Positions 1,156 to 57,350 of a DNA stretch of 64,000 bases are shown one piece after another. Each line of letters begins with the position of its first letter. Positions within the stretch are counted from its first letter, which is position 1. Made by a program: the position numbers and the translations under genes. Origin of the DNA: Candidatus Magasanikiibacteriota bacterium. GTDB lineage: Bacteria; Patescibacteriota; Patescibacteriia; Magasanikbacterales; GWA2-37-8. Location of the stretch: contig JAHFHV010000001.1 in NCBI GenBank assembly GCA_023246725.1, forward strand, positions 13,618 through 77,617. The letters are read 5' to 3'. Under the pieces are notes generated by a model. The model ran no database searches. It saw nothing but the letters and a program-made list of their open reading frames with translations, and was not told the origin of the DNA.

Positions 1156-3045
1156 ATGTCCACACAGCAACTCACCGAGCTCGCCAAACTTATTCGCTAT
1201 TATTCACTTGTCTCCACCACCGCGGCTGGCTCTGGTCATCCCACATCTTCCCTCTCGGCGGCGGACTTGATGACTGTTTTAATGTTCAACGGATTTTTTA
1301 GAACTGATTTAGATAATCACGCATATATCAATAACGACCGGCTGATTTTTTCTAAAGGCCACGCGTCGCCCTTGTTTTATTCGATTTACGCGGCGGCCGG
1401 CAAAGTGAATGAAGAAGAAATGCTGACGCTCCGCAAGTTTGGAAGTCGCTTAGAAGGGCACCCTACTATGATGTTTCCGTATACCGAAGTGCCGACCGGT
1501 TCTTTGGGACAAGGGTTGTCGGTGGGCGTTGGAATGGCTTTGAACGCTAAACTGGATAAGCTCCCGTATCGTACCTGGGTGCTTTTGGGGGATAGTGAAA
1601 TGGCCGAAGGCAGTGTGTGGGAAGCGATGGCCTGTGCTTCGCATTACAAACTTAATAATTTAGTGGCGATTTTGGATGTGAATCGGCTCGGTCAGCGGGG
1701 GGAAACGATGTACGGGCACCACACCGAAGTGTATGAAGCCAAAGCCAAGGCCTTTGGATGGGAGACGATTGTGATTGATGGGCATAATTATGAGGAAATA
1801 GCGGTGGCGTACGCGACGGCCATAAATCAAAAAAACAATAAATCAAAAAATCAAAGCGAACGGCCGACGATGATAATTGCCAAAACGTTGAAAGGCAAAG
1901 GTGTTTCGTTTATAGAAGATAAAGACGGATGGCACGGGAAGGCGTTGTCGAAAGAGGAGCTTGTATTGGCACTTAAAGAGTTGGGAGAAGTGAATAAAAC
2001 GGTTAAGGGAGAAGTTGTGAAACCGGAAGTGGTGGAAACGAAGAATGAAGAATTAAGAATGAATATCCAATATCCAATATCCAATATCCAATATCCTACC
2101 GACAAGCCGGTAGCGACGCGTAAAGCGTTTGGGAATGCGCTGCTTAATATTTATGCCGAGTTCCCCAACATGGTGGTACTTGACGCGGAAGTAAGCAATT
2201 CAACGTACACGGAATTTTTTAAGAAAGCACACCCGGAGCGATTTTTTGAGATGTACATTGCGGAGCAAAATATGGTTGGCGTGGCAACGGGGTTGGATCG
2301 TCGCGGTAAGTTGGTATTTGCCTCCACGTTTGCCGCATTTTTTGCGCGCGCGTTTGACCAAATTCGAATGAGTCAATACGCAGAGTCAAATATCAAATTT
2401 ATTCAGTCGCATGCCGGCGTATCAATAGGCGAAGATGGCGCGTCGCAGATGGCGCTGGAGGATTTGGCAATGTTTCGGTCGCTTTTAAATATCGTCGTAT
2501 TATATCCGTGTGACGCGATTTCGGAAGAAAAATTAGTTGTTGCGGCGGCTCGGCACAAGGGCAACGTGTATATTCGCAATACCAGAAAAGAAACGCCGAT
2601 TTTATATAGTCCAACTGAAGAATTTCCAATTGGCGGGAGTAAAACGGTACGTTCGAGTGATTCCGATGTGGTGACAGTGATTGGGGCCGGGGTGACGTTA
2701 TTTGAGGTACTGAAGGCGTACGATGAATTACAAAAAGAGGGGATTAATATAAGGGTGGTGGATCTTTACAGTATTAAGCCACTTGATAGTGCGATGCTCG
2801 CGAAAGCGGCGCAAGAGACGAAGGCAATTATTACCGTTGAGGATCATTATGCCGAGGGCGGATTAGGTGAGGCCACCGCGACTGCGGTCGCGGAATTAAG
2901 AATGAAGAATGAAGAATGTCGAATACTGGTGATTCGATTGGCGGTGAGGAAGATGCCCAAGAGCGGCAAACCGGAGGAGTTGTTGGCGTATGAGGAGATT
3001 GATGCGAAGGCGATTGTGAAGAAGGTTAAAGAGATAATTAAATAA
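1156..3045 (+). CDS. tkt: Transketolase, fused N- and C-terminal halves
   Basis: GHPTSSLSAADLMTVLMF (TPP-binding N-term), pyrimidine-binding and C-terminal domains; 629 aa. Confidence 0.85.
   Translation: MSTQQLTELAKLIRYYSLVSTTAAGSGHPTSSLSAADLMTVLMFNGFFRTDLDNHAYINNDRLIFSKGHASPLFYSIYAAAGKVNEEEMLTLRKFGSRLEGHPTMMFPYTEVPTGSLGQGLSVGVGMALNAKLDKLPYRTWVLLGDSEMAEGSVWEAMACASHYKLNNLVAILDVNRLGQRGETMYGHHTEVYEAKAKAFGWETIVIDGHNYEEIAVAYATAINQKNNKSKNQSERPTMIIAKTLKGKGVSFIEDKDGWHGKALSKEELVLALKELGEVNKTVKGEVVKPEVVETKNEELRMNIQYPISNIQYPTDKPVATRKAFGNALLNIYAEFPNMVVLDAEVSNSTYTEFFKKAHPERFFEMYIAEQNMVGVATGLDRRGKLVFASTFAAFFARAFDQIRMSQYAESNIKFIQSHAGVSIGEDGASQMALEDLAMFRSLLNIVVLYPCDAISEEKLVVAAARHKGNVYIRNTRKETPILYSPTEEFPIGGSKTVRSSDSDVVTVIGAGVTLFEVLKAYDELQKEGINIRVVDLYSIKPLDSAMLAKAAQETKAIITVEDHYAEGGLGEATATAVAELRMKNEECRILVIRLAVRKMPKSGKPEELLAYEEIDAKAIVKKVKEIIK
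2041..2096 (+). repeat. Heptanucleotide tandem repeat block (aagaatg/t x3 + aatatcc x5) inside tkt at N/C-domain junction
   Basis: Direct reading: 8 consecutive 7-bp units, encodes ELRMNIQYPISNIQYP. Confidence 0.8.
2899..2919 (+). repeat. Second heptanucleotide tandem repeat (aagaatg x3) inside tkt
   Basis: aagaatgaagaatgaagaatg; preceded by the same gaattaagaatgaa context as the first block. Confidence 0.7.
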
Positions 3046-6131: not shown

Positions 6132-6236
6132 ACAAAATGACAAAATCCAAATGACAAATGTCAAATCAAATCCAAAATCCCAATTCTAGAATTTGATATT
6201 TGAGCTTGATTTGACGTTTGAAATTTGTCATTTGAT
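6132..6236. repeat. Inverted-repeat element family 2 (caaatgtcaaat / atttgacatttg)
   Basis: Copies at 47992, 50969, 52215 (inside radA), 57313. Confidence 0.7.
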
Positions 6237-6282
6237 ATTAAACTTTAGCTTTAATTTTTTTTACAGCACATAAAAGCTGTTT

Positions 6283-9687: not shown

Positions 9688-9727
9688 AAATATTAAACAG
9701 ATATTAAGAAAATATTAAACGAATATT

Positions 9728-11608: not shown

Positions 11609-11625
11609 TTTTAACTTATAATCAT

Positions 11626-11886
11626 ATGTCAGGCAGAGAAACAGCGGCTATCAATATTCCAGAAATTAGACGCGAGCTTTTTCTGAGAGGACTTCGTGAG
11701 CTTAAAACCATGCCGGCGAAAGATGCGGCGCAGTGGCTGGCGCGGAACGGGTTTACCCGTCAAGACATGCTTGACCCTAAAATGAATTTCGCAGGCACTT
11801 TAAAGTCAGCTCTCGGGAGCAAAGAAGGGGCGGAAGTCATTAGTCAGCTAAGCAGTATTGAGTCGGAAAATAAAGCCGCCGCCTAG
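11626..11886 (+). CDS. Hypothetical protein
   Basis: 86-aa ORF directly after ftsH, followed by terminator. Confidence 0.35.
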   Translation: MSGRETAAINIPEIRRELFLRGLRELKTMPAKDAAQWLARNGFTRQDMLDPKMNFAGTLKSALGSKEGAEVISQLSSIESENKAAA

Positions 11887-11892
11887 AATTCA

Positions 11893-16061: not shown

Positions 16062-16075
16062 CACTCTACCGTTTG

Positions 16076-23230: not shown

Positions 23231-25858
23231 CTATTTTTTCATAAGTAAACTCCACACAGTATCGCGCTCCAAAGGCTGGCTAGGAATTTTTCCGCCGTTG
23301 CTCGCCGGAACCATATCGCTCCCATCCTGCCAGACCGGCCTCCAACCATCCGGAAAAATAATTTGGCTATCAAATTTGCTCTCGGAGCCGGATTGACGCC
23401 CCACGACTAATTGGTATGAAGCGGCCTGTGCACTTGTCGATCGCTCGTTTTGAAAGGCGGTAAAGGGAAGTTTATAGACGAATTCAATGCGGCTGGTTGC
23501 CCCCGGCTCCGTAATTATCCAATTTCCAAAGGCTGTCTTGCCAAACTCTTCGGTAACGCGCGTGCCGGTACGCGCCTCAATGCCGATCTCGGTTTCTTTG
23601 GCAGTTAGGGCGGCGTCGGTTACGGCCCAGGGGTCGGGAACGCGAAAGAGCGTCTCGTTTGGCCAGCTAAAACCGCTGACCGAAATAAGCGCGCTGCCTT
23701 TGGGAACATATAGGCGGAGATAATCTATATTGGCAGTACCGTACAATTTTTCGCCAAAGGCACCAGTATGCTCGCGCATAATGGTGACGGTATTGGTAAT
23801 GGTGCCATTTTCTTCAACCACTGCCTGGTGGCTGATATTTTGTTTAATTTTACTATCGGATTTTTCCCCCTGGATATTGGTATTAATGGCCATGAGAAAA
23901 TCTTGGTCCGCTCGCGTTGTGGGCACAGCTCCGCTCCAGCCTAAGGCAACCAAGGCGCTCTCGGCCTCTTCGTCGGTATTATAGAGCTGAATTTCTTTTT
24001 GCTCCAGCGCGTTTTCAAGCTGGTGTAAAACTCCCAGGAGCGAGCCCAGCGGGGCTTTTTGAATAGTGTCCAAAAGATTAGGCGCCAGATCAGCCAGAAT
24101 TTGTTTGGGAGTATTGGCAGTTTTCTCCGGGCCGGTTTCAATAATTTTTTCTAAGATGGGGAGTGCGCTCTCGGCCGAGAGTGTGAGCGAACGGGAGTTA
24201 TCGGTTAAAGGGCCAAGCACACTAAGAAGCCTTTCCAACACCGTTCCATTAATCGCAATCACCCCATCCAAGGTTACGCCGCGGCTATGGCGGTAAAACC
24301 ACAGCATCTTGTCCGCGCTGGCGGGGAAGTCCGGAAACCAGTTAGCGTCCTGGAATTCCCAGCGCTTGTTGGCAAGGAGCAGAGGCGTGGGCGGTTTTAC
24401 GTACGCGTTGAGCTGTCCTTGCAAATCGTAGCTGCCGCCGGGGGGCAATTTAAAGCTTAACAGCTGGCCATCTTTTACCTCAATTACGGCAAAACTGCCC
24501 ATAAAGCCGCCAGTCGGTCGCAATTCGTGCTGGTTTTGGAAAACCAGCAGAAAGCGCCGCCGGCCAGTCTGCCCTAAAAATTCTTTCAGGGGCCCCGCCA
24601 GCTCTGTAATTACTTCCAGGTCGTGGCTGATCGCATTCACCACTTTTTTAACATTGGCAAAATCGGCCTGATGCTCTGCCGGCAGCACGCTGATATCCAC
24701 GCGCGCTAATTTTTTCTGGGCCGCCTGGTAATGAGGCAAGGTGGCTTTGACGCCAGCCAGAATTGGTTCCAAGTGTCCAAGGAGCGTAGCGCCCGGCGCT
24801 ATGTTTCCTTGGCCAAGAGACGAAAAGAGATAGGAATTTCCGAGAGCAATATCTGCGCCGGCCAGCAGTACGTTTTCTTTACTGGTAATATTGTTGCCTA
24901 CTCTGGGGAGCATCGCGGCCACGGTGGCCAAAAATCCATGCTTGGTTTGCAGCAGGCTCGCGGCTTTGTTAAGCTGCTTAAGGGCAAGGTCTGTAGTTTC
25001 TTCGGCTAAGGAAATATTACCGCCTCTTAAGGCGTCGGTGGAATTTTTTAACGAAGCAAACCCGGCTAAACTTTGCGCGGTAATTTCGTTAGTATCATCT
25101 TTCAGGCTGGTAACATAACCAAAACTGGCGCGCGGCAGAATAATAACCAAGACAATAACAGCGAGCGCCCAGCGGAGTTTAAAATTTTGTTTTGTAATGA
25201 GGCGAGAAAGCAGTGTGTCATTTCGAGTCCTATGGTCCCGCGGCGAGCGGGATCCGCGATCCTTCGGGATCAGGACAATCCCCTCGTTTTCAGAAAGAGC
25301 TCTGTAATCAGTGGGATCGCCACGCCCCGCTTGAGCGGGGCTCGCGATGACAATAGCACGCTTCACCACCTTCTCTTTTTTGTCATGCCACCACTCACCG
25401 CACGCAGTTACCATTTGTTGTAAGTGTGATATTGGTTTTAAAGAATCAAACCTACTAGGACTTGCTTGGTCTTGATCTAAATCTTGATCGACACTTTGTG
25501 CAAACAATCTTTCGGGCGCACTCGGCAGTTTATGATAATAATGGTAGAGCGGATTTTGAGAATCAACGGGAGCCGCGGCGGTAACATTTTTCCACACCTC
25601 TTTTTTATGGTGGCGCATGTCAATAACATAGGGCGAGGCGGCGGACGCGTGACTAACATGGTGCACAAAAAATTTCAGCGGCGTTCTTGAAACAGGCGCT
25701 GGCGGAGGCGTCGTTGAAGTTGGAGCGCTGGGAAGGACAACAACAGGGCAAGTGGCTTTATTGTGGCCAGCTTTTTTACAGCTGCCGCAGCGGCGCAGTT
25801 GGCGAGAGGGTGATTCTTTGGACATGAAAAACAAACAATGGGAATGGAAAATTCTCAT
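23231..25858 (-). CDS. Hypothetical large single-pass membrane protein with N-terminal CCHC zinc-knuckle
   Basis: CGSCKKAGHNKATC (C-X2-C-X4-H-X4-C), TM WALAVIVLVIIL, about 640-aa extracytoplasmic domain; alternative start 25825; possible leaderless (tataat 5 nt before ATG 25858). Confidence 0.55.
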   Translation of the reverse strand: MRIFHSHCLFFMSKESPSRQLRRCGSCKKAGHNKATCPVVVLPSAPTSTTPPPAPVSRTPLKFFVHHVSHASAASPYVIDMRHHKKEVWKNVTAAAPVDSQNPLYHYYHKLPSAPERLFAQSVDQDLDQDQASPSRFDSLKPISHLQQMVTACGEWWHDKKEKVVKRAIVIASPAQAGRGDPTDYRALSENEGIVLIPKDRGSRSPRDHRTRNDTLLSRLITKQNFKLRWALAVIVLVIILPRASFGYVTSLKDDTNEITAQSLAGFASLKNSTDALRGGNISLAEETTDLALKQLNKAASLLQTKHGFLATVAAMLPRVGNNITSKENVLLAGADIALGNSYLFSSLGQGNIAPGATLLGHLEPILAGVKATLPHYQAAQKKLARVDISVLPAEHQADFANVKKVVNAISHDLEVITELAGPLKEFLGQTGRRRFLLVFQNQHELRPTGGFMGSFAVIEVKDGQLLSFKLPPGGSYDLQGQLNAYVKPPTPLLLANKRWEFQDANWFPDFPASADKMLWFYRHSRGVTLDGVIAINGTVLERLLSVLGPLTDNSRSLTLSAESALPILEKIIETGPEKTANTPKQILADLAPNLLDTIQKAPLGSLLGVLHQLENALEQKEIQLYNTDEEAESALVALGWSGAVPTTRADQDFLMAINTNIQGEKSDSKIKQNISHQAVVEENGTITNTVTIMREHTGAFGEKLYGTANIDYLRLYVPKGSALISVSGFSWPNETLFRVPDPWAVTDAALTAKETEIGIEARTGTRVTEEFGKTAFGNWIITEPGATSRIEFVYKLPFTAFQNERSTSAQAASYQLVVGRQSGSESKFDSQIIFPDGWRPVWQDGSDMVPASNGGKIPSQPLERDTVWSLLMKK
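25217..25352. repeat. Two adjacent MITE family 1-type palindromic elements inserted in-frame in CDS 23231..25858
   Basis: gtcatttcgag...ggatcaggaca and ...gccacgccccgcttgagcggggctcgcgatgaca; the latter matches half-copy at 48035-48072; encodes linker between Zn-knuckle and TM. Confidence 0.7.
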
Positions 25859-25993
25859 TCTTTATTATACACTACTTATGCACAATTCCCAAGCCTTGTT
25901 TTAGTGTTGCCATTTCTAGGCGCGGGGAGTATTATTATAGCGGTAGCGGTGTTAGATATTGCGAAGATATTAAGAGAATATTAAAAAAATATT

Positions 25994-27205
25994 ATGTTAT
26001 ATTTAAGCGAGCTTTTAAAACGCCCGATTCGCGACAGTTCGGACACCAAAGTCGGGCGGCTTGTGGATATTGTGATTAGTCCCCGGGCCGGGGAGTATCC
26101 GCCGCTCTTGTTTTTGGTTATGGAAGCAAAGCGGACTGAACAGCGGATTTTTATTTCGTATGCCTATGTGGCTAATGTAAGCCGCGAAGAAATTGCCTTA
26201 AAACATTTGTTTAAAACCATTCCCGAAGGCGCTCCAGCCGACGGAGCGGTGTGGTTGTGCCGCGATATTTTGGACGAACAGATTGTGGATGTGGAAGGCG
26301 CGCGGGTGGTACGCGTCAACGACTTGCGTCTGGGGACTTTTGAAAATCAATTATGCGTGCTGGGGATTGACGTGAGTTTTAAAGGGCTCCTGCGCCGTCT
26401 TGGCCTCTCGGGTATGGATGTGTTTGAGATGTGGCCAGTTAATTTAATTGACTGGCGGAAAGCGCAACTCGTCAAGGGGGTATTAAAGCTGGATACGATT
26501 TTAAAAGATTTGGTAAAAATCCACCCGGCTGACCTGGCTAACATTGTGGAAGATTTGAGTTTGAAGCAAGGTGGCAAACTGGTGAGAAGTTTGGATGCCG
26601 CGGCCGCGGCGCATGTTTTGGAAGAACTGGATCCGCATATTCAAAAAACTCTGGTGCATTATTTGGGGCCGGAGCGGGCCTCCCAGATTGTAGCGCAAAT
26701 GTCGGTTGATGAGACGGTTGATCTGTTAAAAATGCTGCCCAAACAAGAGGCAACGGAATTTTTGTCGTACATCCAGGGCAGCAAGCTGGCCAAGGTTAAA
26801 AAATTGATCAGTTACTCCGAAGACAGCGCCGGCGGGCTTATGACTACTGAGCACGTGGCGGCCCGGCCGGATTGGACCGTACTTCAGACCATTGACGAGG
26901 TACGCCGCTTATCGGACCGCATGCGTTCCATTGTGCATGTGTATATAACCGATGATGAGGGTTATTTTAAAGGTTCGGTGTCGCTCCGGCGCCTGCTGTT
27001 GGCGCGCCCGGGCGACGCGCTTAAAAATATTATGAAACGCCTGCCCAAACGCAACGTATTAAAAATTGATGATTCGATTAATAAAGTAATTAAAATGATG
27101 ACTAAATACGATTTGTACACCGCGGCCGTTTTGGACAAAGAGCATAAACTGGTGGGAGTCGTAACGATTGACGACGTGATGCGACACCTGGTGCCAAATG
27201 CCTAA
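25994..27205 (+). CDS. Soluble PRC-barrel + MgtE-N + CBS-pair protein, no membrane domain
   Basis: MgtE N-domain-like acidic helical region, tandem CBS; lacks MgtE TM helices. Confidence 0.65.
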   Translation: MLYLSELLKRPIRDSSDTKVGRLVDIVISPRAGEYPPLLFLVMEAKRTEQRIFISYAYVANVSREEIALKHLFKTIPEGAPADGAVWLCRDILDEQIVDVEGARVVRVNDLRLGTFENQLCVLGIDVSFKGLLRRLGLSGMDVFEMWPVNLIDWRKAQLVKGVLKLDTILKDLVKIHPADLANIVEDLSLKQGGKLVRSLDAAAAAHVLEELDPHIQKTLVHYLGPERASQIVAQMSVDETVDLLKMLPKQEATEFLSYIQGSKLAKVKKLISYSEDSAGGLMTTEHVAARPDWTVLQTIDEVRRLSDRMRSIVHVYITDDEGYFKGSVSLRRLLLARPGDALKNIMKRLPKRNVLKIDDSINKVIKMMTKYDLYTAAVLDKEHKLVGVVTIDDVMRHLVPNA

Positions 27206-35899: not shown

Positions 35900-36304
35900 A
35901 TGTCTAAAAATATTGCCATTATCATGGGAGCGTTTCATAAATCAGAAGTAACTGAAATGTTGGCGGAGGCTCGTAAAGTTGCTGCTGAATGTGGTTTGAA
36001 TATTGTGGAAGAAATTTGGGTGCCTGGTTCATACGAGAAACCGTTGGCATTGAAACGAGTTTTGTCGCGCGAAGATATTCTTGGCGCGGTGGTGCTTGGT
36101 ATCATTGAACGCGGCGAGACTAAACATGGGTTGGTAATGGCCGAGGTGGTGATGTCAGCGATTGTGGATTTGGAATTGGCATATATGAAGCCGGTGGGCA
36201 TTGGCATTTTGGGTCCAGAAGTTCTCCCCGATCAAATTCCTTCTCGTCTTATTCCCTTTGCGCGCGCCGCGGTTAGGGCCGCTGCCCACATGATGGGGGT
36301 TTAA
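35900..36304 (+). CDS. ribH: 6,7-dimethyl-8-ribityllumazine synthase
   Basis: Lumazine synthase fold; 134 aa. Confidence 0.8.
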   Translation: MSKNIAIIMGAFHKSEVTEMLAEARKVAAECGLNIVEEIWVPGSYEKPLALKRVLSREDILGAVVLGIIERGETKHGLVMAEVVMSAIVDLELAYMKPVGIGILGPEVLPDQIPSRLIPFARAAVRAAAHMMGV

Positions 36305-36308
36305 TTTC

Positions 36309-36337
36309 TTGACAGTCGATCCAATTTGTGGTATACA
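36309..36337 (+). promoter_or_regulatory. Consensus promoter ttgaca-17-tataca for rnpB
   Basis: Read directly. Confidence 0.55.
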
Positions 36338-36343
36338 ACAAGT

Positions 36344-36895
36344 GTTTATAGCAGATGATCGCCCGCTCAACGCGCAAGCGCCTGAGCGGGAGGAAAGTCC
36401 GAACACCCTCAGTTTTTTCGCTACCTGCTGAGAAAAGGATAGTGGGTAACACCCACCGTTCCGATGGCAACGTCGGAAAAGGGACAGTGGCACAGAGACA
36501 ATACTACTTTGTCGCGCCGCAGCCTTGGCGAAGGCGGAACCATAAGAATCCCCGCCTTCGCCAAAGCTATGGCGCGGCAAAGGAAAGGTGAAAAGTGTAT
36601 GGGAGTTTTGGTTCTTAAGACCAAAGCTACGATACTCCGTCCCGTAGCAATGCGGGATGTGTGCTAAACCCTGTCTGGTGCAAGAGCAGCGTTTTCGTCG
36701 CAAGGCGAATTCGTAAAGTTCGCTCGCATTGCCTCGCCGAAGCCCCGCAACTGCGGGGCGAAGGCAGGCTTGATCCGGTTAGCAATAACCGGGCTAGATA
36801 AATGATCATCACCACGGATTCTTTGCACGGATCAACACAGATATTAGTGAAGATCAGTGTAAAAAATCCGTGGTACAAAATTCGGCTTATCGCTG
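36344..36895 (+). ncRNA. rnpB: RNase P RNA (bacterial type A-like) with expansion hairpins
   Basis: P4 halves gaGGAAAGUCCGaac (bulged U) and acaaaaUUCGGCUUAucg, GGGUAAcaCCCACC, cUAGAUaAAUGAuc; ends in terminator hairpin 36896-36934. Confidence 0.65.
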
Positions 36896-36963
36896 TAAAC
36901 CGCGCACCACGACAAAATTTGTCGTGGTGCGTTTGTTAGTCATAAGAAGTTGGGGACTGGCTA

Positions 36964-45142: not shown

Positions 45143-47992
45143 ATGAAAGATCAGTTAACTATACGAGGCGCGCGCGTCCACAACCTCAAAAATCTTTCCA
45201 TTACTATCCCCAAGCACAAATTAGTCGTGCTTACGGGTTTATCCGGGTCGGGCAAATCCAGCTTAGCCTTTGACACTATTTATGTGGAAGGCCAGCGCCG
45301 GTACGCCGAATCATTGTCCAGTTACGCCCGGCAGTTTATGGAAGTGCGTGATAAGCCGGATATTGATGGGATTGAGGGATTGTCTCCCACCATCGCGATT
45401 GACCAAAAAGTATCCACCCAGAACCCGCGTTCCACCGTTGGCACGGTAACGGAAATTTATGATTATCTCCGGTTGCTGTTCGCGCGCGCGGGCGTGCAGT
45501 ATTGCCCGGAGTGCCGCGTGGCCGTGGAGGTGTACACCCCTGGGGCGATTAGCGCCAAGTCCAGGGAGCTGGCTCGCAAAACTAAAGAACTGACGATTTT
45601 TGCTCCATTGATTCGGGATGGTCGGGTTGATTCTAAAAGCCTTCTTGAAACCGTGGAAAAATCCGGCTATGAATGGGTGCGGGTTGATGGCGAGCTTTTA
45701 AAAATAAATGATTTAGCCACGTATCGCTTTGCTCCGGAGACGAATTACACAGTGGAACTTTTAATTGGCAAATTAACGGACATTAAAAAAGACGACCCGA
45801 CCAAGTTTATTGAATCTGCCCTGGAGCTTACCAACGGCCTGGTGATTGTGGCAACTGACGATACCAGTCGGCTGTTTGCCACGATTGGCCTCTGTCCGCG
45901 GTGCGGCAAAACCTTGCCCAGCCTTGATCTGCGCAGTTTTAGCTTTAACAGCCCATACGGAGCTTGCCCACGCTGTACCGGCCTGGGGGTTACCATGGAA
46001 GTAGACCCCAATTTAGTAATTCCCAATACGCGGCTAACCTTATCCGAAGGCGCCATTCAGCCCTGGACGCGCATTACCGGCAACCAAAGTTTGTATCAAA
46101 AAATGCTCTCCGCAGTGGCGGAGAGGCACGGGTTTTCCACCAGCATTCCCGTGGCCGATTTGCCGGCAAAAATTTTGGATATTATTTTGTACGGCGGGGG
46201 CGTTGAGCAGTACATGATTGAAAATAAAAAAATTAGCTTTGCCGGGGTGATTCCGGATTTAATGCAAAAGCATTTAGATACCACGTCCGATTACGTGCGC
46301 AAAGAAATTGAACAATACATGCGCGAGAAAATTTGTCCCATCTGCCAGGGAAAACGTTTGCGGCTGGAGTCGCTGGCGGTCCGGGTAGGGGATTTTACGA
46401 TTGCGGAACTGTCTAACTTAAGCGTGGCGGAATGCCGGGCGGCAGTGGAAAGGTTATCCGCTATAGGCGGAGGCGAAAGGTTTAAGGTGATTGAACCGAT
46501 TGCGAAAGAGATTGGCCCGCGCTTAAAAAATTTAGAACGAGTAGGCCTGGGGTATTTAAGTTTAAGCCGCTCCATGAATACCTTGTCGGGCGGTGAAGTT
46601 ACGCGCGTCCGCTTGGCCTCGCAATTGTCGGCCGGTCTTACGGGCGTGATTTATGTTTTGGATGAGCCGTCGGTGGGCCTGCACCCGCGCGACAATGAGC
46701 AGTTGATTGATACCTTAAAATATTTGCGCGACCTAGGCAATTCCGTTATTGTGGTGGAACACGACCCGGCCATGATGCTGGCGGCCGATTACTTAATTGA
46801 TATTGGCCCGGGCGCCGGGGTGTATGGCGGCGAAGTACTCATCGCGGGGAACTTGCGCGAATTTAAAAAAGCCGCGGCTCGCCTAGACTCGGGGCGGGCT
46901 AAAGGAAAATCTGCCAGTGGCCAGCATTCGCTGACAGCCGACTATTTATTTGGTCAAGCGGATTTTAGCGATTTGTACCCCAAAAAATCAGACGGAAAGA
47001 AGCCGCCAACGGGCAAAAGTTTGAGCATTATGGGAGCGAGCGCGTTTAATTTAAAAAATATTGATGTGGAGATTCCGCTCGGCAAGCTTGTTTCCGTCAC
47101 GGGCGTGTCTGGTTCCGGCAAGTCAACTTTAATTATAGATATTTTAGGCAAGGCATTATCCAAATATTTTTACCGCGCCAAAGACGAGCCGGGCGCGCAT
47201 AAAACCATCAAAGGGCTCTCTAACATAGACAAAGTGATTGCCATTGACCAAAGCCCCATTGGCCGCACGCCCCGTTCTAACCCCGCTACCTACACCGGTG
47301 TGTTTACACTTATTCGGGATGTGTTCGCGTCCCTTACCGAAGCCCGCATGCGCGCGTACGACGCCGGTAAATTTAGTTTTAACGTTAAAGGCGGGCGGTG
47401 CGAGGCCTGCGCCGGCGAAGGCTATGTGCGCATCCCCATGCAATTTTTGGCCGATGTGTTTGTGGAGTGTAGCGAGTGCAATGGCCTAAGGTACAATCAA
47501 GAGGCTTTGGAAATTCATTACCACAATAAGCACATTGCCGACGTGTTAAAGATGACGGTGGAAGAAGCGCGCAGTTTTTTTAGCGAGTTTCCGCCTATAG
47601 CCGACAAGCTCAACATTCTGCGCGAAGTGGGCCTGGGCTACGTGGAACTGGGCCAGCCGGCTACCACCATATCGGGCGGCGAGGCCCAGCGCATAAAATT
47701 GGCGCAAGAGTTGTCCCGCCCGTCTACCGGCAAGACACTCTACATTTTGGACGAACCAACGACCGGACTGCATTTTGAAGATACCAAACGACTCTTGCGA
47801 GTGCTTCGTCAGTTAGTCAGCAAAGGTAATTCGGTGGTGATTATTGAACATAACGTGGATGTGATTCGTTGCAGTGATTGGGTAATTGATTTAGGGCCCG
47901 AGGGCGGCAACCAAGGCGGCCTGGTGGTAGCCGAAGGCACGCCAGGTGACGTGAAGAAGAATAAGAAGAGCTGGACGGGACGGTACCTGTGA
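45143..47992 (+). CDS. uvrA: Excinuclease ABC subunit A
   Basis: Two ABC ATPase modules ([20 protein letters not shown]), zinc-finger cysteines; 949 aa. Confidence 0.93.
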
Positions 47993-48017
47993 AATATCAA
48001 ATATCAAATGTCAAAGT
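47992..48017. repeat. Repeat family 2 fragment (atatcaaatatcaaatgtcaaag)
   Basis: Matches 6132/57313. Confidence 0.55.
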
Positions 48018-48034
48018 GAGCGTTGATGGTTTGT

Positions 48035-48072
48035 GTCATTGCGAGCCCCGCTCAAGCGGGGCGTGGCAATCC
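48035..48072. repeat. Half-copy of MITE family 1 variant (gtcattgcgagccccgctcaagcggggcgtggcaatccc)
   Basis: Reverse complement matches 25310-25352. Confidence 0.65.
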
Positions 48073-48096
48073 CGTAACATTCAGAGAGAATTAAAA

Positions 48097-48668: not shown

Positions 48669-50939
48669 ATGAACCTCACAACCCCGGTAAGCGAACTCAC
48701 CAAGGTAGGCAAAACCGCGGCCAAGCGCCTGGGGTATCTTGGCATTCACACCGCCCAGGACTTATTGTATTACTTTCCGTTTCGCTACGAAGACTATCGC
48801 CGCGTGGTTTTAATTAAAGATTTGCGAGACGGAGAGAGTGTTACCATTAGTGGAGCAGTGGAACTAATTTCCAATCGGCGCAGTTTCCGCAGCCGCAAGA
48901 TGGTTACCGAGGCGCTCATTCGCGACCACAGCGGGAGCTTGCGCGTGGTGTGGTTTAACCAGCCGTTTATTGGCAAGGCGCTCCGCCCGGGCGATAAAGT
49001 TTATCTCTCGGGCGCTGTTAAAGGCGATCTGCTGGGGGCCCAAATGGTCAGCCCGGCTTATGAAAAAATTACGTCGCGGGAAACTACCTCAACCGCGCGC
49101 CTGGTGCCAATGTACGCGCTTACGGCCGGACTTACCCAAAAACAAATTCGATTTTTAGCCCAGCAAGTAGCGCCGTTGGCCGAGCAGCTGTCTGATTGGC
49201 TGCCAGCCAAAATTTTAGGACAGTATGATTTGATTCCACTGCCCCAGGCTCTCCGCGGCATTCATTTTCCGATTGATGAAGCGGCTCTTAAAAAGAGCAC
49301 CGAGCGATTGAAGTTTGATGAGTTATTGCTGCTCCAGCTTCAGGCTGAAGACAGTCGAAAAAACAGATTAGACCACAGCGCGCCCCAGCTTACTTTTCAC
49401 CAAAGCGCTCTGCAAGAGTTTGTGGGCCGCCTGCCGTTTACGCTTACCAAAACCCAAAAAATCGCGGCCTGGGAAATACTTCAAGACATCCAAAAATCAA
49501 CTCCGATGAACCGCCTGCTCTCGGGCGATGTTGGCTCGGGCAAAACCGTGGTGGCGGCTATGGCGCTGTACTCAGCATTTTTAAATGGTTACCAAGGAGT
49601 GCTCATGGCGCCAACCGAGATACTCGCGGCCCAACACTTTGCGTCTTTGTGTAGATTGTTTAGCGGTCTCCCTATTTCAATTGGGTTACTTACGGCTAAT
49701 CAAGTTTCAACTGTCATTCTGAACGGAGCGCAGCGCAGTGAAGAATCTCTGTCTCAATCAATCAACGGAGAGAGATCCTTCGCTACGCTCAGGATGACAG
49801 TTGCTAAAAAAGAAAAAGAAGGATTTTTGAAAAAATTAGCTATCGGAGAAATAAAGATCATCGTTGGCACGCACGCTTTGCTTTCGGAAGGGGTACATTT
49901 TAAAAAACTCGGCCTGGTGATTGTGGATGAGCAACATCGATTTGGCGTGGAACAGCGGAAGGTTATTAAGGAGAAATCATTGACGACTTCCAGCCAGACC
50001 TCTCTCACCGCTCTCTCCTCTGCAGAGGAGAGAGGTACGGTCACACCCTCTCCTTTGCAAAGGAGAGGGCAGGGAGAGGTCTCGCAATCGGCGCATTTTT
50101 TAAGTATGACGGCCACTCCCATCCCGCGTTCATTGGCTCTTATGTTGTATGGCGACCTCGACATTTCTATCATCAGTGAACTTCCGCCGGGACGCAAGCC
50201 AATTATCACGCGCCTGGTGGAGCCAGCCAAACGGGAAAAAGCCTATGAGTTTATTCGGGCACAGGTGAAAAATGGACGACAAGTATTTGTGGTGTGTCCG
50301 CTGATTGAAGATAAACAGGCTGGTGCGATTGTTGCCCCCCTGCGAGGGGGTGGTTCTAACGACAAAAGATCAGTCTTGAGTGAATATGACAAACTATCCC
50401 AACAAATTTTTCTTGACCTCCGCGTAGGCTATCTACACGGTAAAATGAAAGCTAAAGAAAAAGATGGGGCAATGGAGAAATTTAAACAAGGCGAGACCGA
50501 TATTCTTGTGTCCACGTCGGTCGTAGAAGTCGGCGTGGACATCCCGAACGCCAGTGTGATGATGATTGAAGGCGCGGATAAATTTGGCCTGGCGCAACTG
50601 CACCAATTCCGCGGACGCGTGGGCAGGTCAATCCATCAATCATATTGTTTGCTGTTTACCGATAGTGATTCGTATCGCTCTTCCGAGCGATTAAAATATT
50701 TTGAAACGCACCACGATGGTTTTAAACTAGCGGAAAAAGATTTGGCTATGCGGGGGCCAGGCGAAGTGTATGGCACGGAGCAAAGCGGCCTGCAACAACT
50801 CCGGCTCGCGAAATTGACTGATCAGGGCATAATAAAAAAAGCGCGCGAGGTGGCGCGCGAGGTGGCTCCAGACATTAAGAAATATCCTAAACTTTTAGAA
50901 AAGATTAAAGAGTGGGAGCGAGTGGTGCATTTGGAATAA
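48669..50939 (+). CDS. recG: ATP-dependent DNA helicase RecG, with in-frame palindromic insertions
   Basis: Wedge domain, helicase motifs (GDVGSGKT, DEQHRFG), C-terminal TRG motif; 756 aa. Confidence 0.9.
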   Translation: MNLTTPVSELTKVGKTAAKRLGYLGIHTAQDLLYYFPFRYEDYRRVVLIKDLRDGESVTISGAVELISNRRSFRSRKMVTEALIRDHSGSLRVVWFNQPFIGKALRPGDKVYLSGAVKGDLLGAQMVSPAYEKITSRETTSTARLVPMYALTAGLTQKQIRFLAQQVAPLAEQLSDWLPAKILGQYDLIPLPQALRGIHFPIDEAALKKSTERLKFDELLLLQLQAEDSRKNRLDHSAPQLTFHQSALQEFVGRLPFTLTKTQKIAAWEILQDIQKSTPMNRLLSGDVGSGKTVVAAMALYSAFLNGYQGVLMAPTEILAAQHFASLCRLFSGLPISIGLLTANQVSTVILNGAQRSEESLSQSINGERSFATLRMTVAKKEKEGFLKKLAIGEIKIIVGTHALLSEGVHFKKLGLVIVDEQHRFGVEQRKVIKEKSLTTSSQTSLTALSSAEERGTVTPSPLQRRGQGEVSQSAHFLSMTATPIPRSLALMLYGDLDISIISELPPGRKPIITRLVEPAKREKAYEFIRAQVKNGRQVFVVCPLIEDKQAGAIVAPLRGGGSNDKRSVLSEYDKLSQQIFLDLRVGYLHGKMKAKEKDGAMEKFKQGETDILVSTSVVEVGVDIPNASVMMIEGADKFGLAQLHQFRGRVGRSIHQSYCLLFTDSDSYRSSERLKYFETHHDGFKLAEKDLAMRGPGEVYGTEQSGLQQLRLAKLTDQGIIKKAREVAREVAPDIKKYPKLLEKIKEWERVVHLE
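49713..49799. repeat. MITE family 1 copy inserted in-frame in recG (87 bp = 29 codons)
   Basis: gtcattctgaacggagcgcagcgcagtgaagaatctctgtc...gagatccttcgctacgctcaggatgaca. Confidence 0.85.
49995..50082. repeat. Family 5 twin-hairpin element inserted in-frame in recG
   Basis: ctctcctctgcagaggagag and ccctctcctttgcaaaggagaggg hairpins; encodes SLTALSSAEERGTVTPSPLQRRGQGE. Confidence 0.7.
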
Positions 50940-50968
50940 TCTAAAATGAGGCGATGATAAACAAGTAT

Positions 50969-51018
50969 TGATTTTTTGAGCTTGATTTGTCATTTGACCT
51001 TTGGATTTTGATATTTTA
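50969..51018. repeat. Repeat family 2 copy
   Basis: tttgagcttgatttgtcatttgacctttggattttg, matches 6195-6236. Confidence 0.6.
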
Positions 51019-52377
51019 AGCCGTATGTTTAATCAATTCCTGAATATTCACAACGTCGATAATTTTTAATTTATAATTTATAATTTTCAATTTCTTTCCT
51101 CCGTTCGTAATAACTCTTTTTAATCCAACCAACTCACATTCCTTCAGTCGTTTTTCCATTTGCCCTACTGGCCGTACTTCACCACTTAAACCAATTTCGC
51201 CAAATACTACCAGGTCACTTCCGAGTACCTTGTCTTTATAGGAGCTCGCAATGGATAGCGCCACCGCCAAATCTGCGGCCGGTTCACTGGCTTCCAGGCC
51301 TCCCACCACATTCACATGCACATCATATTGTTCCAGTTTCAGTCCAGCGCGCTTTTGCAAAACCGCTATCAACACGTGCAATCGATTAATATCAAATCCA
51401 CTCGCCTTGCGCGTGGGATACCCAAACGCCGTCTTGGTTACTAGTGCCTGAATTTCCACCAAGAGCGGGCGCGTTCCTTCCAAGAGGCAGGTGAGGACAT
51501 TCCCGGGCGCGTTTTCACCGCGCTCCAGTAAAAATTGCGCGGACGGATTTTTCACTTCTTTGAGTCCTTCAGAGTGCATTGCAAAAATCCCTACTTCATC
51601 CGTGGCGCCAAAACGGTTTTTCACCGTACGCAGAATTCGGTAATCATGGTGGCGGTCGCCCTCGAGGTACAGCACTGTATCTACCACATGCTCCAAAGTT
51701 TTCGGTCCAGTAATCGTCCCATCTTTAGTTACGTGGCTCACCAGGACTACCGCGGTGCCGGTGGTTTTGGTGGCTTCGAGAAGTTTTACCGCGCTGGCGC
51801 GAATCTGGTTCACGTTCCCGGGTTCGCCTTCCACTTCCCCGGAAGAGATGGTTTGGATGGAATCGATAATAGCCAGAGCTGGTTTTGTAGTTTGAATCGT
51901 CGCAATGATCGTTTCAACATCAGTTTCGTTCCCCAGGCGCAGTGTCCCCGAAGAAATATGTAACCGGTCAGCCCGGAGTTTAATTTGCTCAATGGATTCC
52001 TCCGCCGAAAGATACAAGGTGCTGGGGATTGCCGCGGCCAACTGCAAGGCCAAGGTCGATTTTCCAATCCCCGGCTCACCACCCAGCACAATCAAACTCC
52101 CGGGCACCAGGCCCCCGCCCAGCACGCGGTCCAGCTCGCCAATATTGGTTTTAATACGCGTGAGATTTTTTCCTTCAATTTCTTGCAAACCAAACGTCTT
52201 GGCTGTGGGATAATTACTATTTGAATTTTGGTTTTTGGATTTGATTTGGAATTTGACATTTGACATTTGACATTTTTCAATCGTTCCCCATTTACCACAT
52301 TCCAAACACCGGCCCGTCCATTTAGTGAACTGGGCGTCGCAGTTGGCGCAGGCAAAAATGAGGGAGTCTTTGGGCAT
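51016..52377 (-). CDS. radA: DNA repair protein RadA/Sms, with family-2 repeat inserted in linker
   Basis: N-terminal C4 zinc finger CANC...CLEC, RecA-like Walker A GEPGIGKST, KNRFG motif, C-terminal Lon-like domain. Confidence 0.88.
   Translation of the reverse strand: MPKDSLIFACANCDAQFTKWTGRCLECGKWGTIEKCQMSNVKFQIKSKNQNSNSNYPTAKTFGLQEIEGKNLTRIKTNIGELDRVLGGGLVPGSLIVLGGEPGIGKSTLALQLAAAIPSTLYLSAEESIEQIKLRADRLHISSGTLRLGNETDVETIIATIQTTKPALAIIDSIQTISSGEVEGEPGNVNQIRASAVKLLEATKTTGTAVVLVSHVTKDGTITGPKTLEHVVDTVLYLEGDRHHDYRILRTVKNRFGATDEVGIFAMHSEGLKEVKNPSAQFLLERGENAPGNVLTCLLEGTRPLLVEIQALVTKTAFGYPTRKASGFDINRLHVLIAVLQKRAGLKLEQYDVHVNVVGGLEASEPAADLAVALSIASSYKDKVLGSDLVVFGEIGLSGEVRPVGQMEKRLKECELVGLKRVITNGGKKLKIINYKLKIIDVVNIQELIKHTA
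52215..52276. repeat. Repeat family 2 copy in-frame in radA (encodes KCQMSNVKFQIKSKNQNSNSN)
   Basis: atttgacatttgacatttgacattttt on + strand inside minus-strand ORF. Confidence 0.75.
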
Positions 52378-52388
52378 ATTGATACTTT

Positions 52389-53633
52389 TTATATCACCCA
52401 TCGAGGAAGAAAATGCACGGCGGTGTTTTCTATTTTTGTGGCATGGAAGGCGGAATCTCCCAAAAGTAAAGCGTGGGACGGGCGGTATTCCCGTATAAAG
52501 TTGTGAAGCGATCGAGTAACGGTCGCTGTATTGAGCAAACTTTTACTTTCGATGGGAATTACCGTTGGTCCGGTTTTAACAACAAAATCAACCTCCGACT
52601 GGGATTTGCTGCGCCAATAATTGACTGAGCAATTCTGTTTTAAGAGTTGCGTAAAAATAAAATTTTCATATAGCGGCCCCTTGTCGCTCCGCCGGTTAAG
52701 CGGGTTAAAATTTTGCAGGACATAATTTCGCAGACCAGTGTCGAAAAAATACGGCTTAGGATTTTTGGTGATTTCTTTGCGTCGGTTGGAAAACCACGGC
52801 CGCACCAGTTGGCAGATAAAAGTTTTTTCCAGAATATTGAGATATTTTTTTAGGGTTATCTGATCGTATCCGGAAATTTGGCCGAGTTCGTTATAGTTTA
52901 CTAATTGCCCGATTTGCACCGCCAAGGCTTCAATTAGTTTTGAGAGCTTAAAATCATCAATTAGGCCCAAGGTATCCTTAATATCACGCAGAAAATAGGT
53001 GTTGTAAATATTGCTTAAAACAGTCATTTTTTTATCTTCGGTATCTTCTAGTATTACTCGCGGGTAGCCGCCCCAAATAATAAATTCATCGGCCAGCGCT
53101 AAAAGTTGGCTATTAGCAGGGCCGCTAATTTTTAGCGAGGCAATGCTTGGTTTTTTTAAATTAATGTGCTGGCGGCATTCCGCGTATAGCGCCATGAGCG
53201 ATGGATCGCGGAAAGACACGAATTCCTCAAAATCAAGCTCATACAGGTTAAAAATAAAAACCCGGCCGACTAAAAATTTTAGCGCCTTGATGGTTAAATC
53301 AATAGCGCTGGAACCGGAAATTATTATTTTACAGCCCGGGTAAGTGTCATAGAGATATTTAAGATTTTTTCCGCCTTGCTTGGCATATTGGAATTCATCA
53401 ATAAATAGGTATTTGCCTGCTAAGTATTTCTTGGCAAATCCGTCAATATCCCGTTCAAAGTCAGCCAGGGTTTGCATTTTATCAAAACTAATAAAAACCG
53501 CGTCGCTTAAGCCGCCATGGATTTTTTTTAACAACGTGGTTTTGCCGCTTTGCCGCGGGCCGACAATTGCCAAAATTTCTGGGTCTTCTAAATAGCTTAA
53601 AATGGTAGTCTCTAATTTTCGCTTAATATACAT
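52389..53633 (-). CDS. AAA+ ATPase, DUF4143 type (paralog 2)
   Basis: Walker A GPRQSGKTTLL, Walker B LFIDEFQ. Confidence 0.7.
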   Translation of the reverse strand: MYIKRKLETTILSYLEDPEILAIVGPRQSGKTTLLKKIHGGLSDAVFISFDKMQTLADFERDIDGFAKKYLAGKYLFIDEFQYAKQGGKNLKYLYDTYPGCKIIISGSSAIDLTIKALKFLVGRVFIFNLYELDFEEFVSFRDPSLMALYAECRQHINLKKPSIASLKISGPANSQLLALADEFIIWGGYPRVILEDTEDKKMTVLSNIYNTYFLRDIKDTLGLIDDFKLSKLIEALAVQIGQLVNYNELGQISGYDQITLKKYLNILEKTFICQLVRPWFSNRRKEITKNPKPYFFDTGLRNYVLQNFNPLNRRSDKGPLYENFIFTQLLKQNCSVNYWRSKSQSEVDFVVKTGPTVIPIESKSLLNTATVTRSLHNFIREYRPSHALLLGDSAFHATKIENTAVHFLPRWVI

Positions 53634-56074: not shown

Positions 56075-57331
56075 TTATAAGTTTACCTGAAACACCCCCT
56101 GTTTATTGGGATCCGTAAACAGCACCTTATTTTTTTTAGCATCGTAGGATATTGAATTGATGTGAAAGTTATTACCCAAGGGAACATTGGTGGTCAAACC
56201 GGTTTTCAAATCAATTTTGTACATGTCATCGGGCAGAGTGTCGGCAATGGCCGGCGACATGCCCGCTCCTTGGGGCAAGTCGCGCGGCACAGCGCAGAAC
56301 AGGGTGTTGTCATCGCCAAACGAACATTTGTTAGCCCAGGTGTTTAAGCGCAGAGTTTGGCGGTTGCTGCCAATATCATCACCATACGAATTCACCACCC
56401 ACAGCTCTGGTTTAAAATCGCTGCGGGCGCTATCCACGCTGTAAAGCAGTTTTTTACCGGTCGGCGACCACTGCGGCTGAAAATTCAACCCTTCCACGAC
56501 CGTGGATTTAAAATTTTCCCCGTTCAAGCCCACAAATAATACTTCCACCCGGTCGGCCCCTTGCGGCGCCCCGGTGCGGGACAAAGCCACGGTTTGCCGG
56601 CTGGGCGACCAATCCACGGTAACGCGGTCGCCATTATCGCCCAAGGGTTCAATTAGCTTGGTGCCGGTGCCGTCGTCTTTGGCTACCACCAGCCAGCGGT
56701 TTTCCGGTGAGAGTCCTAGGCTTTTGGCCGCTACTTCCGTGCTATCTGGGGAAAAGGAAAAATCTTGCCAGTGTTTGGGCAAGGTAATTTGTTTTTTAAG
56801 ATCAAAATTGTACAAAATTTTGGAGCTGTCGGGGTACTCCAGCACCGCTTTGTTACCAGTTTTTGCCCAGGTAACATTTTGGACGTTATAGAATACTTGG
56901 TCGCTTAAGGCAGTGGTTTGCCCAGCGTCGCCCACGCGGTAAAATTTGCCGTCTTGCGCGTTATGGTAGCGAAAATCGCCGCTCGCCGCCAGAGAAGAAA
57001 AAACGGCCGCGTCAGCATTAAGCTGAGTTACCGGTTCCGGCGTAAAGTAGCTGGGCGTCGCTCCAGGAATGGCGCCTGCCGTCGGCAAGCCTCCTTCCGC
57101 GCCGCCGCTTGGTGTTGCCTCGCCCGCCCCGGGCACGCGTTCTCCCGCGCCCGGCAGCTGGCCAGGCGCTGCGCCCGGGCGAGTTCCGCCGACCGTGGTG
57201 GGGGGCGGCGTGGCCTTAAAAAACAGCGTGAAAATGCCCCAGGCAATTAAAGCCGAGATTGTAAGCAAGCCGAGGATGAGGAGAATTCGTTTGAGTCCAG
57301 AAGACATAGGAAGTGAAATATCAAATGACAA
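56075..57331 (-). CDS. Membrane-anchored PD40 (TolB-like) beta-propeller repeat protein
   Basis: N-terminal TM, Pro/Gly-rich linker, repeated propeller blades. Confidence 0.55.
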   Translation of the reverse strand: MSFDISLPMSSGLKRILLILGLLTISALIAWGIFTLFFKATPPPTTVGGTRPGAAPGQLPGAGERVPGAGEATPSGGAEGGLPTAGAIPGATPSYFTPEPVTQLNADAAVFSSLAASGDFRYHNAQDGKFYRVGDAGQTTALSDQVFYNVQNVTWAKTGNKAVLEYPDSSKILYNFDLKKQITLPKHWQDFSFSPDSTEVAAKSLGLSPENRWLVVAKDDGTGTKLIEPLGDNGDRVTVDWSPSRQTVALSRTGAPQGADRVEVLFVGLNGENFKSTVVEGLNFQPQWSPTGKKLLYSVDSARSDFKPELWVVNSYGDDIGSNRQTLRLNTWANKCSFGDDNTLFCAVPRDLPQGAGMSPAIADTLPDDMYKIDLKTGLTTNVPLGNNFHINSISYDAKKNKVLFTDPNKQGVFQVNL

Positions 57332-57350
57332 ATGTCAAATACCAAATGTG
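57313..57350. repeat. Repeat family 2 copy
   Basis: tatcaaatgacaaatgtcaaataccaaatg. Confidence 0.6.

Follow-up and report, generated by a model that had tools for sequence, protein, structure and literature searches.

Heptameric repeats are over-represented in many bacteria (PMC4692102). The (GGGAATC)n arrays of Xanthomonas and the (GGGGAYT)n arrays of Nostoc are dispersed, count mostly about 4 units and are found mainly between genes, near gene ends, with an intragenic share of 7-11% in Xanthomonas and 32% in Nostoc; some of them are arranged as inverted pairs, they differ from one close species to the next, and slippage associated with the footprint of the polymerase has been suggested as their cause (PMC4692102). 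Rickettsia palindromic elements (RPEs) are the classic example of repeats that are inserted in frame in housekeeping genes and appear compatible with the fold and function of the product (PMC10969869). Here a heptanucleotide array is described that is translated in the radA gene of a Candidatus Magasanikiibacteriota bacterium (Patescibacteriota), in a stretch of 64,000 nucleotides (nt) that is referred to below as the window (positions 13,618 to 77,617 of contig JAHFHV010000001.1, assembly GCA_023246725.1). The array occupies the linker between the zinc ribbon and the ATPase domain of RadA, and we consider it likely to be a tolerated passenger copy of a dispersed heptanucleotide family, (AAATGWC)n, in an unconstrained linker.

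Repeats inside genes are also familiar from other settings. STRR sequences reportedly lie inside the RNase P RNA gene of cyanobacteria. The contingency loci of Haemophilus and Neisseria are intragenic tandem repeats that are phase-variable and reside in surface or restriction genes. Our search of the literature did not turn up a description of in-frame heptamer arrays from Patescibacteria. The radA repeat had been pointed out in an earlier note on this DNA, which regarded it as a short palindromic repeat and as part of a pattern of such repeats in DNA-repair genes.

A heptanucleotide array is translated in the linker of RadA

The minus-strand open reading frame (ORF) 51016..52401 encodes RadA/Sms (TIGR00416, score 536 bits, cutoff 403), with Pfam matches to Zn_ribbon, AAA_25/KaiC and Lon_C/ChlI. 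Public gene calls and the ortholog alignment place the start at M9, position 52377, so that the radA/sms gene runs over 51016..52377 on the minus strand; its product of 453 amino acids (aa) is on record in NCBI, ENA and Logan. An exact protein look-up with the 461-aa form, which starts at 52401, gave no match. The longest radA ORF begins with this alternative ATG at 52401, which would add 8 aa, and it runs into the stop of the gene upstream (52389..53633). The C4 zinc ribbon (Pfam PF18073) is encoded by 52276..52356 of the minus strand and comprises aa 16-42 in the numbering of the 461-aa form. Its residues C18, C21, C32 and C35 are invariant in an alignment of 27 orthologs, as are the Walker A motif GEPGIGKST and the KNRFG motif of the ATPase, a RecA/KaiC-type domain matched by AAA_25 and KaiC that begins at about aa 83. 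The C-terminus forms a Lon-like domain (Lon_C and ChlI matches), and comparison with the RadA of S. pneumoniae (PDB 5LKM) gave E=5e-122. With its zinc finger, RecA-like ATPase, Lon-like domain and equivalog score the host gene is thus a RadA/Sms gene.

The repeat is in frame and separates the zinc ribbon from the ATPase, and the minus strand translates as EKCQMSNVKFQIKSKNQNSNSNYP, which is the peptide that the earlier note had given. The part of the linker that is encoded by the repeat, KCQMSNVKFQIKSKNQNSNSNYP, corresponds to aa 43-65 (52207..52275, minus strand) as delimited by translation, by the per-residue confidence (predicted local distance difference test, pLDDT) of the AlphaFold2 model and by the hypervariable block of the alignment. 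In the sense strand GAAAAA is followed by three TGTCAAA units, by TTCCAAA, TCAAA, TCCAAAA, ACCAAAA and TTCAAA in this order, and finally by TAGTAAT. Tandem Repeats Finder (TRF) resolves this sequence into a perfect heptamer array, (GTCAAAT)x3.6 in the sense direction or ATTTGAC on the plus strand, at 52251..52275 (minus strand, period 7, 100% matches). The 8-nt unit 'tttgacat' that had been read from the sequence before is therefore to be replaced by the 7-nt unit ATTTGAC. The array is continued at 52215..52250 of the same strand by degenerate heptamers and a non-periodic segment (TTCCAAA through TTCAAA), as judged from TRF, alignment and nhmmer; TRF still finds period 7 at 52220-52242, and the degenerate units overall extend over 52220-52250. 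The autocorrelation of the linker DNA at lag 7 amounts to 0.63, and the full linker from zinc finger to ATPase has a G+C content of 32% against 48.8% for the whole window.

The copy in radA consists of a single arm. A repeat search of the window did not reveal a partner arm within radA, and the predicted fold of the sense RNA is less stable than that of shuffled sequence (z +1.4). This locus is consequently a heptanucleotide array and not the short palindromic repeat for which it had been taken.

Near the 3' end of radA a second AT-rich array with period 7/14, (AAATTAT)x4, was observed at 51059-51093. Its translation, KLKIINYKLKII, belongs to the C-terminal segment of RadA, which is variable, and the array is conserved in the two closest orthologs.

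The radA copy belongs to a dispersed family

The relationship between the radA copy and the intergenic arrays was examined in several ways, which confirm, at the level of sequence similarity, that they belong to one dispersed family. The 12-mer ATTTGACATTTG has 4 exact matches in the 64-kb window where 0.01 would be expected, and 15 matches with at most one mismatch where 0.73 would be expected. A repeat search groups 6188-6239, 50964-51015 and 52223-52274 at 73-77% identity, and 6134-6183 pairs with 52227-52276 of radA with 82% complementarity over 50 nt. In the alignment the radA copy and 6166-6181 have the non-periodic 16-mer CAAATCAAATCCAAAA in common, with the same 5-nt phase break. An nhmmer profile was built from the three long intergenic copies only, with the radA copy left out. 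This profile matches radA at 52228-52274 with E=2.9e-7, and the shorter copies at 57317-57347 and 47992-48015 with E=0.005 and E=0.1, respectively; it has no match to the other A-rich heptamer arrays of the window, for example that at 1822-1855. The window contains at least six loci of this (AAATGWC)n-type family, most of them intergenic.

The earlier note had placed the same element at 6132, 47992, 50969 and 57313. All four are indeed sites of family copies; identity in the strict sense is confined to two of them, since among the intergenic sites the exact 12-mer is found only at 6155 and 57329, and the copies near 47992 and 50969 are variants with one mismatch.

The intergenic copies are found in different surroundings. 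Two of them, an A-rich arm on the plus strand (6136..6192) and its counterpart on the minus strand (6184..6240), form the left and right halves of an inverted pair, which were delimited by repeat search, nhmmer and folding. The pair is located between two co-oriented minus-strand genes, and 6136-6240 folds as a long AT hairpin (-40 kcal/mol, z -4.9); it is the sole inverted-pair site of the family in the window. Another copy (50961..51015, minus strand; repeat search and nhmmer) lies where recG and radA converge, between their stop codons, and is missing from the orthologous spacer of the nearest species. A shorter copy in a 60-nt spacer (57317..57347, plus strand; TRF, repeat search and nhmmer) is positioned just upstream of the start of a minus-strand gene at 57307. 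The last one (47992..48015, plus strand; TRF, repeat search and nhmmer) is made of AAATATC and AAATGTC units and follows directly on the stop of a uvrA-like gene.

The linker is a hypervariable segment of RadA

Every RadA possesses a linker at this place, and it is hypervariable in the alignment of 27 orthologs as well as in a set of 120 orthologs. In the 120 relatives 41-54 aa, most often 43-44 aa, separate the zinc finger from the ELDRVLG motif, as against 49 aa in the window protein. In the comparison with S. pneumoniae RadA the sole gap in the region comprises 6 residues and is located within the repeat. Deletion of the three perfect units would leave a linker of 42 aa, which is near the usual length. 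This indicates that the repeat did not create the linker; it fills the hypervariable part of it and adds about 5-6 residues. The translated array is a hydrophilic, low-complexity peptide. In the AlphaFold2 model, which is good in the ATPase domain and mediocre overall (mean pLDDT 64), exactly aa 43-65 have a pLDDT below 50 and no secondary structure. On this model the linker between the zinc ribbon and the ATPase is probably disordered.

The nearest species (GCA_023246665.1, L001 below) shows 88% nt identity with the window in radA; the second-closest ortholog was compared as protein only. A contig scan with the RadA alignment returned, among the matches listed, mostly distant phyla, and L004-L006 and L008 from it were used. 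The linker of L001 is about 62% identical to that of the window, as against about 90% for the rest of radA, and differs in length by 6 nt, while it keeps period 7 in the same register (CCCAAGC, CCCAATG, TCCACTG, CCCAAAA). The radA repeat thus resembles its paralogs (82%) more than it resembles the orthologous linker of L001 (62%). The ortholog alignment, which the earlier note had proposed as a check, contained no ortholog with the same linker sequence.

Peaks at lag 7 were also present in the linker DNA of L084 (CAATGAC x2) and L087 (CAAATCCAAATGACCAATGACC), and in that of L088, where the peak stems from the unrelated unit GAATGAA, which yields the peptide VRMKNEELR. No such periodicity was found in the linker DNA of L085, L086 and L004-L008. 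RadA linkers of other Magasanikbacteria contain heptamers of the same family, of a different one, or none at all. The radA site therefore carries heptamers in the closest relative, and lacks 7-nt periodicity in the more distant L085, L086 and L008. The recurrence of heptamers in the linkers of relatives implies that, within this clade, the RadA linker has repeatedly harboured such arrays.

Other short inserts were noticed in RadA orthologs, in the same linker or in other loops (P0002, P0009, P0058/P0067, P0063 and P0117). Their sequences are GGSASGG, LPAGRQG, SLTKRSRGEVSPHS, GPSTSSGQ and ATLPRQSSNDSHTVGAGSPR, and they look like translated GC-rich dispersed repeats, given similar peptides in such genomes. 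This suggests that in-frame insertion of repeats is common in the clade.

The radA/recG spacer differs between the two nearest species as well. The window has a spacer of 76 nt, and L001 has instead a partly GC-rich one of about 480 nt at 11410-11890; no Rfam family was detected in the L001 spacer (about 530 nt). A 40-nt GC-rich element, TGTCATTGCGAGCCCCGCTCAAGCGGGGCGTGGCAATCCC, is present in the window in two copies that are 95% complementary (25313-25352 and 48034-48073), and a relative of it occupies 11360-11410 of L001, in place of the heptamer copy downstream of radA.

Reading frame and stability of the array

GTCAAAT contains no stop codon in any frame, whereas its reverse, ATTTGAC, contains TGA in all three. 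Stops occur only in the latter orientation, and hence only the orientation that is observed can survive inside a gene. The gain or loss of one or two units would truncate RadA at 48-99 aa, for a single unit at 55 or 92 aa and thus directly behind the zinc finger; only a change by three units (21 nt, 7 aa) keeps the frame. This bears out the expectation that slippage would be in frame only for some unit counts. No length variation was seen between the window, L002 and L003, which are consensus assemblies from three sources that are 99.98% identical and free of gaps, and no length variant was present in the RadA protein cluster at 90% identity. As three independent assemblies agree, an assembly artefact as the origin of the array was ruled out.

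Heptamer arrays in other genes

Period-7 arrays are generally abundant in this DNA. The window holds 17 of them as against 1.1 expected from 30 Markov-1 simulations, an excess of about 15-fold; for period 8 the numbers are 11 and 1.3, and for period 14 they are 7 and 0.2. About 9 intergenic loci in 7.4 kb stand against about 8 coding loci in 56.6 kb, which gives densities of about 1.2 and 0.13 per kb, a difference of about 9-fold.

Among the coding loci, the transketolase gene of the window (1156..3045, plus strand) has three in-frame arrays, at 1822-1855, 2040-2096 and 2893-2918, which are translated as NQKNNKSKNQS, KNEELRMNIQYPISNIQYP and ELRMKNEE. The second peptide is encoded by (GAAGAAT)x3.4 together with a perfect (AATATCC)x5; the latter lies in the inter-domain linker and yields NIQYPISNIQYP. 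A transketolase that is 52% identical (L157) carries a GTCAAAT array at the same inter-domain linker. The heptamer families in L157 differ from those of the window at this linker and in other loops. The recG orthologs of L001, L087 and L088 contain several heptamer arrays each.

A metagenome scan for (AAATGWC)3 returned at least 120 contigs, with a G+C content of 28-68% among the matches listed. In contigs of this listing the GTCAAAT array was found in frame in TsaD, MurB, a MurC-like ligase, homoserine dehydrogenase, TsaE and a pilin leader, and inverted-pair forms like that at 6136-6240 were found in L131, L095 and L125. In TsaD the array is a clean insertion of 10 aa with respect to PDB 8iey (30 nt, 4.3 units). 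A search with the peptide (VKCQMSN)x6 retrieved only ORFs of 25-74 aa devoid of a Pfam domain, which are probably miscalled. The presence of in-frame arrays in transketolase, TsaD, MurB, the MurC-like ligase, homoserine dehydrogenase and TsaE implies that there is no specific link to DNA repair, and the pattern of repeats tolerated in DNA-repair genes that had been seen in recG and radA dissolves into a wider one.

Several other repeats were observed in the window. The recG gene (48669..50939, plus strand) has two in-frame inserts that are without counterpart in its orthologs, at 49709-49807 and at about 49983-50090. The first consists of a complete palindromic element, about 95 nt long (TGTCATTCTGA...TCAGGATGACA), that is translated as SEESLSQSINGERSFATLRMTV, and the second comprises 35 aa, SLTTSSQTSLTALSSAEERGTVTPSPLQRRGQGEVSQS. 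Members of the recG palindromic family are also located just after stop codons at 16074, 27229/27293 and 45025. The RNase P RNA (36343-36905, plus strand; Rfam RF00010, 134 bits) measures 563 nt against a model of 367 positions and contains a 31-nt inverted repeat (36507-36537 and 36552-36582), which looks like an inserted repeat element, parallel to the STRR in cyanobacterial rnpB. The minus-strand ORFs 35935..36207 and 36155..36703, which overlap or adjoin this RNA, are probably spurious. Arrays with a period of 11 nt, (ATATTAAnnnn)x4, were noted at 9679-9749 and 25945-26015. They end exactly at the ATG of the genes at 9728 and 25994, are 80% identical to each other and could represent a shared operator or promoter architecture.

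Discussion

How the array came to lie in radA can be envisaged as follows. The ancestor shared with the nearest species would already have had a heptamer array at the linker. Copy-paste or gene conversion would then have homogenised it with another copy or put that copy in its place, or polymerase slippage would have expanded it, or both, and only changes in multiples of 3 nt, for example by three units (21 nt, 7 aa), would have survived. The array may have no function of its own in radA; it would persist because nothing constrains the sequence of the linker, provided that the reading frame and flexibility are preserved.

A number of points weigh against this explanation. It presupposes that an out-of-frame 7-nt unit could enter an intact gene, while stepwise slippage would have to pass through frameshifted intermediates. 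Inspection of the flanks, which was not a systematic search, revealed no obvious target-site duplication or terminal inverted repeat. The profile of the intergenic copies has no match to the linker of L001 and, across 987 kb of ortholog loci, none that reaches E<0.01; in the ten closest of these loci it gave one weak match, to L084 (E=0.44). This lack of matches means that the relatives sampled do not share the family and that the designation of one family holds only for this genome and a few metagenomic contigs. Neutrality of the array would likewise have to be presumed, and MTNDQ-like peptides derived from heptamers recur in several distant RadA orthologs, which is a possible hint of constraint. 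Finally, the low pLDDT of the linker may partly reflect the variability of the alignment and the mediocre model.

The array might alternatively have originated in place, by local slippage in unconstrained A-rich coding DNA, with its likeness to the intergenic copies a convergence from shared mutational bias. L001 does have a positionally homologous, diverged heptamer array, many unrelated heptamer units are found in this and related genomes, the contigs with (AAATGWC)3 arrays are numerous and span a wide range of G+C content among those listed, and polymerase slippage has been proposed for the heptamer excess (PMC4692102). Convergence would nonetheless have to reproduce the non-periodic CAAATCAAATCCAAAA with its 5-nt phase break in both the radA and the intergenic copies, the profile that recognized radA is blind to other A-rich heptamer arrays such as that at 1822-1855, and the radA copy resembles its paralogs more than its ortholog. 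We therefore regard an independent origin as rather improbable. A further thought is that slippage by 7 nt switches radA on and off as in a contingency locus, which would create subpopulations with altered recombination or repair. The unit is not a multiple of three, a change by one unit truncates RadA, and heptamer arrays recur in recG orthologs. Such a switch is very unlikely, however, as 3.6 perfect units are too few for frequent slippage, the three assemblies are identical and the 90% protein cluster is without a length variant. Moreover, like arrays are present in the essential tkt, tsaD and murB, where on/off switching would be lethal, and long in-frame versions of the peptide were met only in domainless ORFs of at most 74 aa that are probably miscalled.

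The DNA or RNA of the array could also act as such. On its plus strand the array presents TTGACA, the sigma-70 -35 consensus, three times, and intergenic copies are close to gene starts and stops, which would fit an antisense promoter, a protein-binding site or a regulatory RNA structure embedded in the gene. Yet a scan for promoters and terminators found nothing at the array, and the antisense promoter was dropped on this ground; Rfam has no family there, the sense RNA has less structure than its shuffled counterparts, the closest ortholog has not conserved the sequence, and the spacing between TTGACA and the downstream ATG differs among the intergenic copies. We give an embedded element of this sort hardly any chance. 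The same low expectation applies to a mobile palindromic element, resembling a miniature inverted-repeat transposable element (MITE) or an RPE, that was inserted in frame. Inverted-pair forms do exist between genes (6136-6240 and those in the three metagenomic contigs), a true palindromic element of about 95 nt lies in frame in recG of this very genome, and RPEs are a known case of dispersed repeats that were inserted in frame (PMC10969869). The radA copy, in contrast, is one unstructured arm and not a palindrome, it is bare of obvious terminal inverted repeats or target duplications on the inspection mentioned above, the net gain in length is only 5-6 aa, and the sister species L001 already has heptamers at the orthologous position.

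The reading of the radA segment as a tolerated passenger copy of the dispersed heptanucleotide family thus remains the one we favour. The 30-nt insertion in TsaD, with its 4.3 units, suggests that ready-made arrays were inserted, and not unit by unit through slippage. Together with the families that differ between genomes at the same RadA and transketolase linkers, and with paralogs that are more alike than orthologs, it points towards a process that may be active in such Patescibacteria and would insert finished heptamer arrays, whatever their sequence, into DNA, essential genes included. We advance this as a speculation with a small chance of being right. As agents one may think of a mobile unit of very small size, of gene conversion from array to array, or of a polymerase or repair activity by which 7-nt templates are reiterated. 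If such a process exists, the in-frame survivors in loops and linkers of RadA, RecG, transketolase, TsaD and MurB/C would be a major, undescribed source of protein insertions and deletions in such reduced genomes.

For radA itself the array carries little weight, as it lies in a freely varying linker and function is probably unchanged. Its interest is in the wider pattern of small genomes that are rich in 7-base arrays, which come to lie repeatedly in frame in loops and linkers of housekeeping proteins. This accounts for odd low-complexity peptides (KCQMSNV, NIQYPIS, MKNEELR) and short spurious ORFs in annotations. It also matters for the alignment and phylogeny of Patescibacteria marker proteins, because array segments are not homologous residue by residue, and it leaves to be explained how a repeat of non-triplet length gets into an intact gene.

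Compared with the contingency loci of Haemophilus and Neisseria, the radA array is likewise a tandem repeat within an ORF with a unit that is not divisible by three, but it counts 3.6 units, no polymorphism was observed and its hosts are housekeeping or essential genes. With RPEs it shares the occurrence of intergenic copies beside in-frame intragenic ones, at tolerant sites of unrelated housekeeping genes. RPEs, however, are palindromes of about 150 bp with a conserved peptide, whereas the radA copy is a one-armed tandem array of about 50-60 nt that adds 5-6 residues. The resemblance is closest to the heptamers of Xanthomonas and Nostoc and to STRR, which also form heterogeneous 7-nt arrays of mostly about 4 units in many dispersed copies, mainly in the spacers of co-oriented genes near starts and stops, with an intragenic minority. 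As in Xanthomonas and Nostoc, some copies of the family form inverted pairs that are capable of hairpin formation, and length and sequence vary between close species (the window and L001), with no variation seen within the species. The AT-rich AAATGWC differs from the units of these two genera in having no G-tract, so that it cannot form a G-quadruplex and does not belong to their G-rich subtype; G-richness is the only tested feature that was not matched. The host in the Patescibacteria, the many coexisting units and the translation of copies in housekeeping proteins set the family further apart from Xanthomonas, Nostoc and STRR. The best reading is that the radA array represents the heptameric kind of simple sequence repeat that is already known in other bacteria, of which it is a new member.

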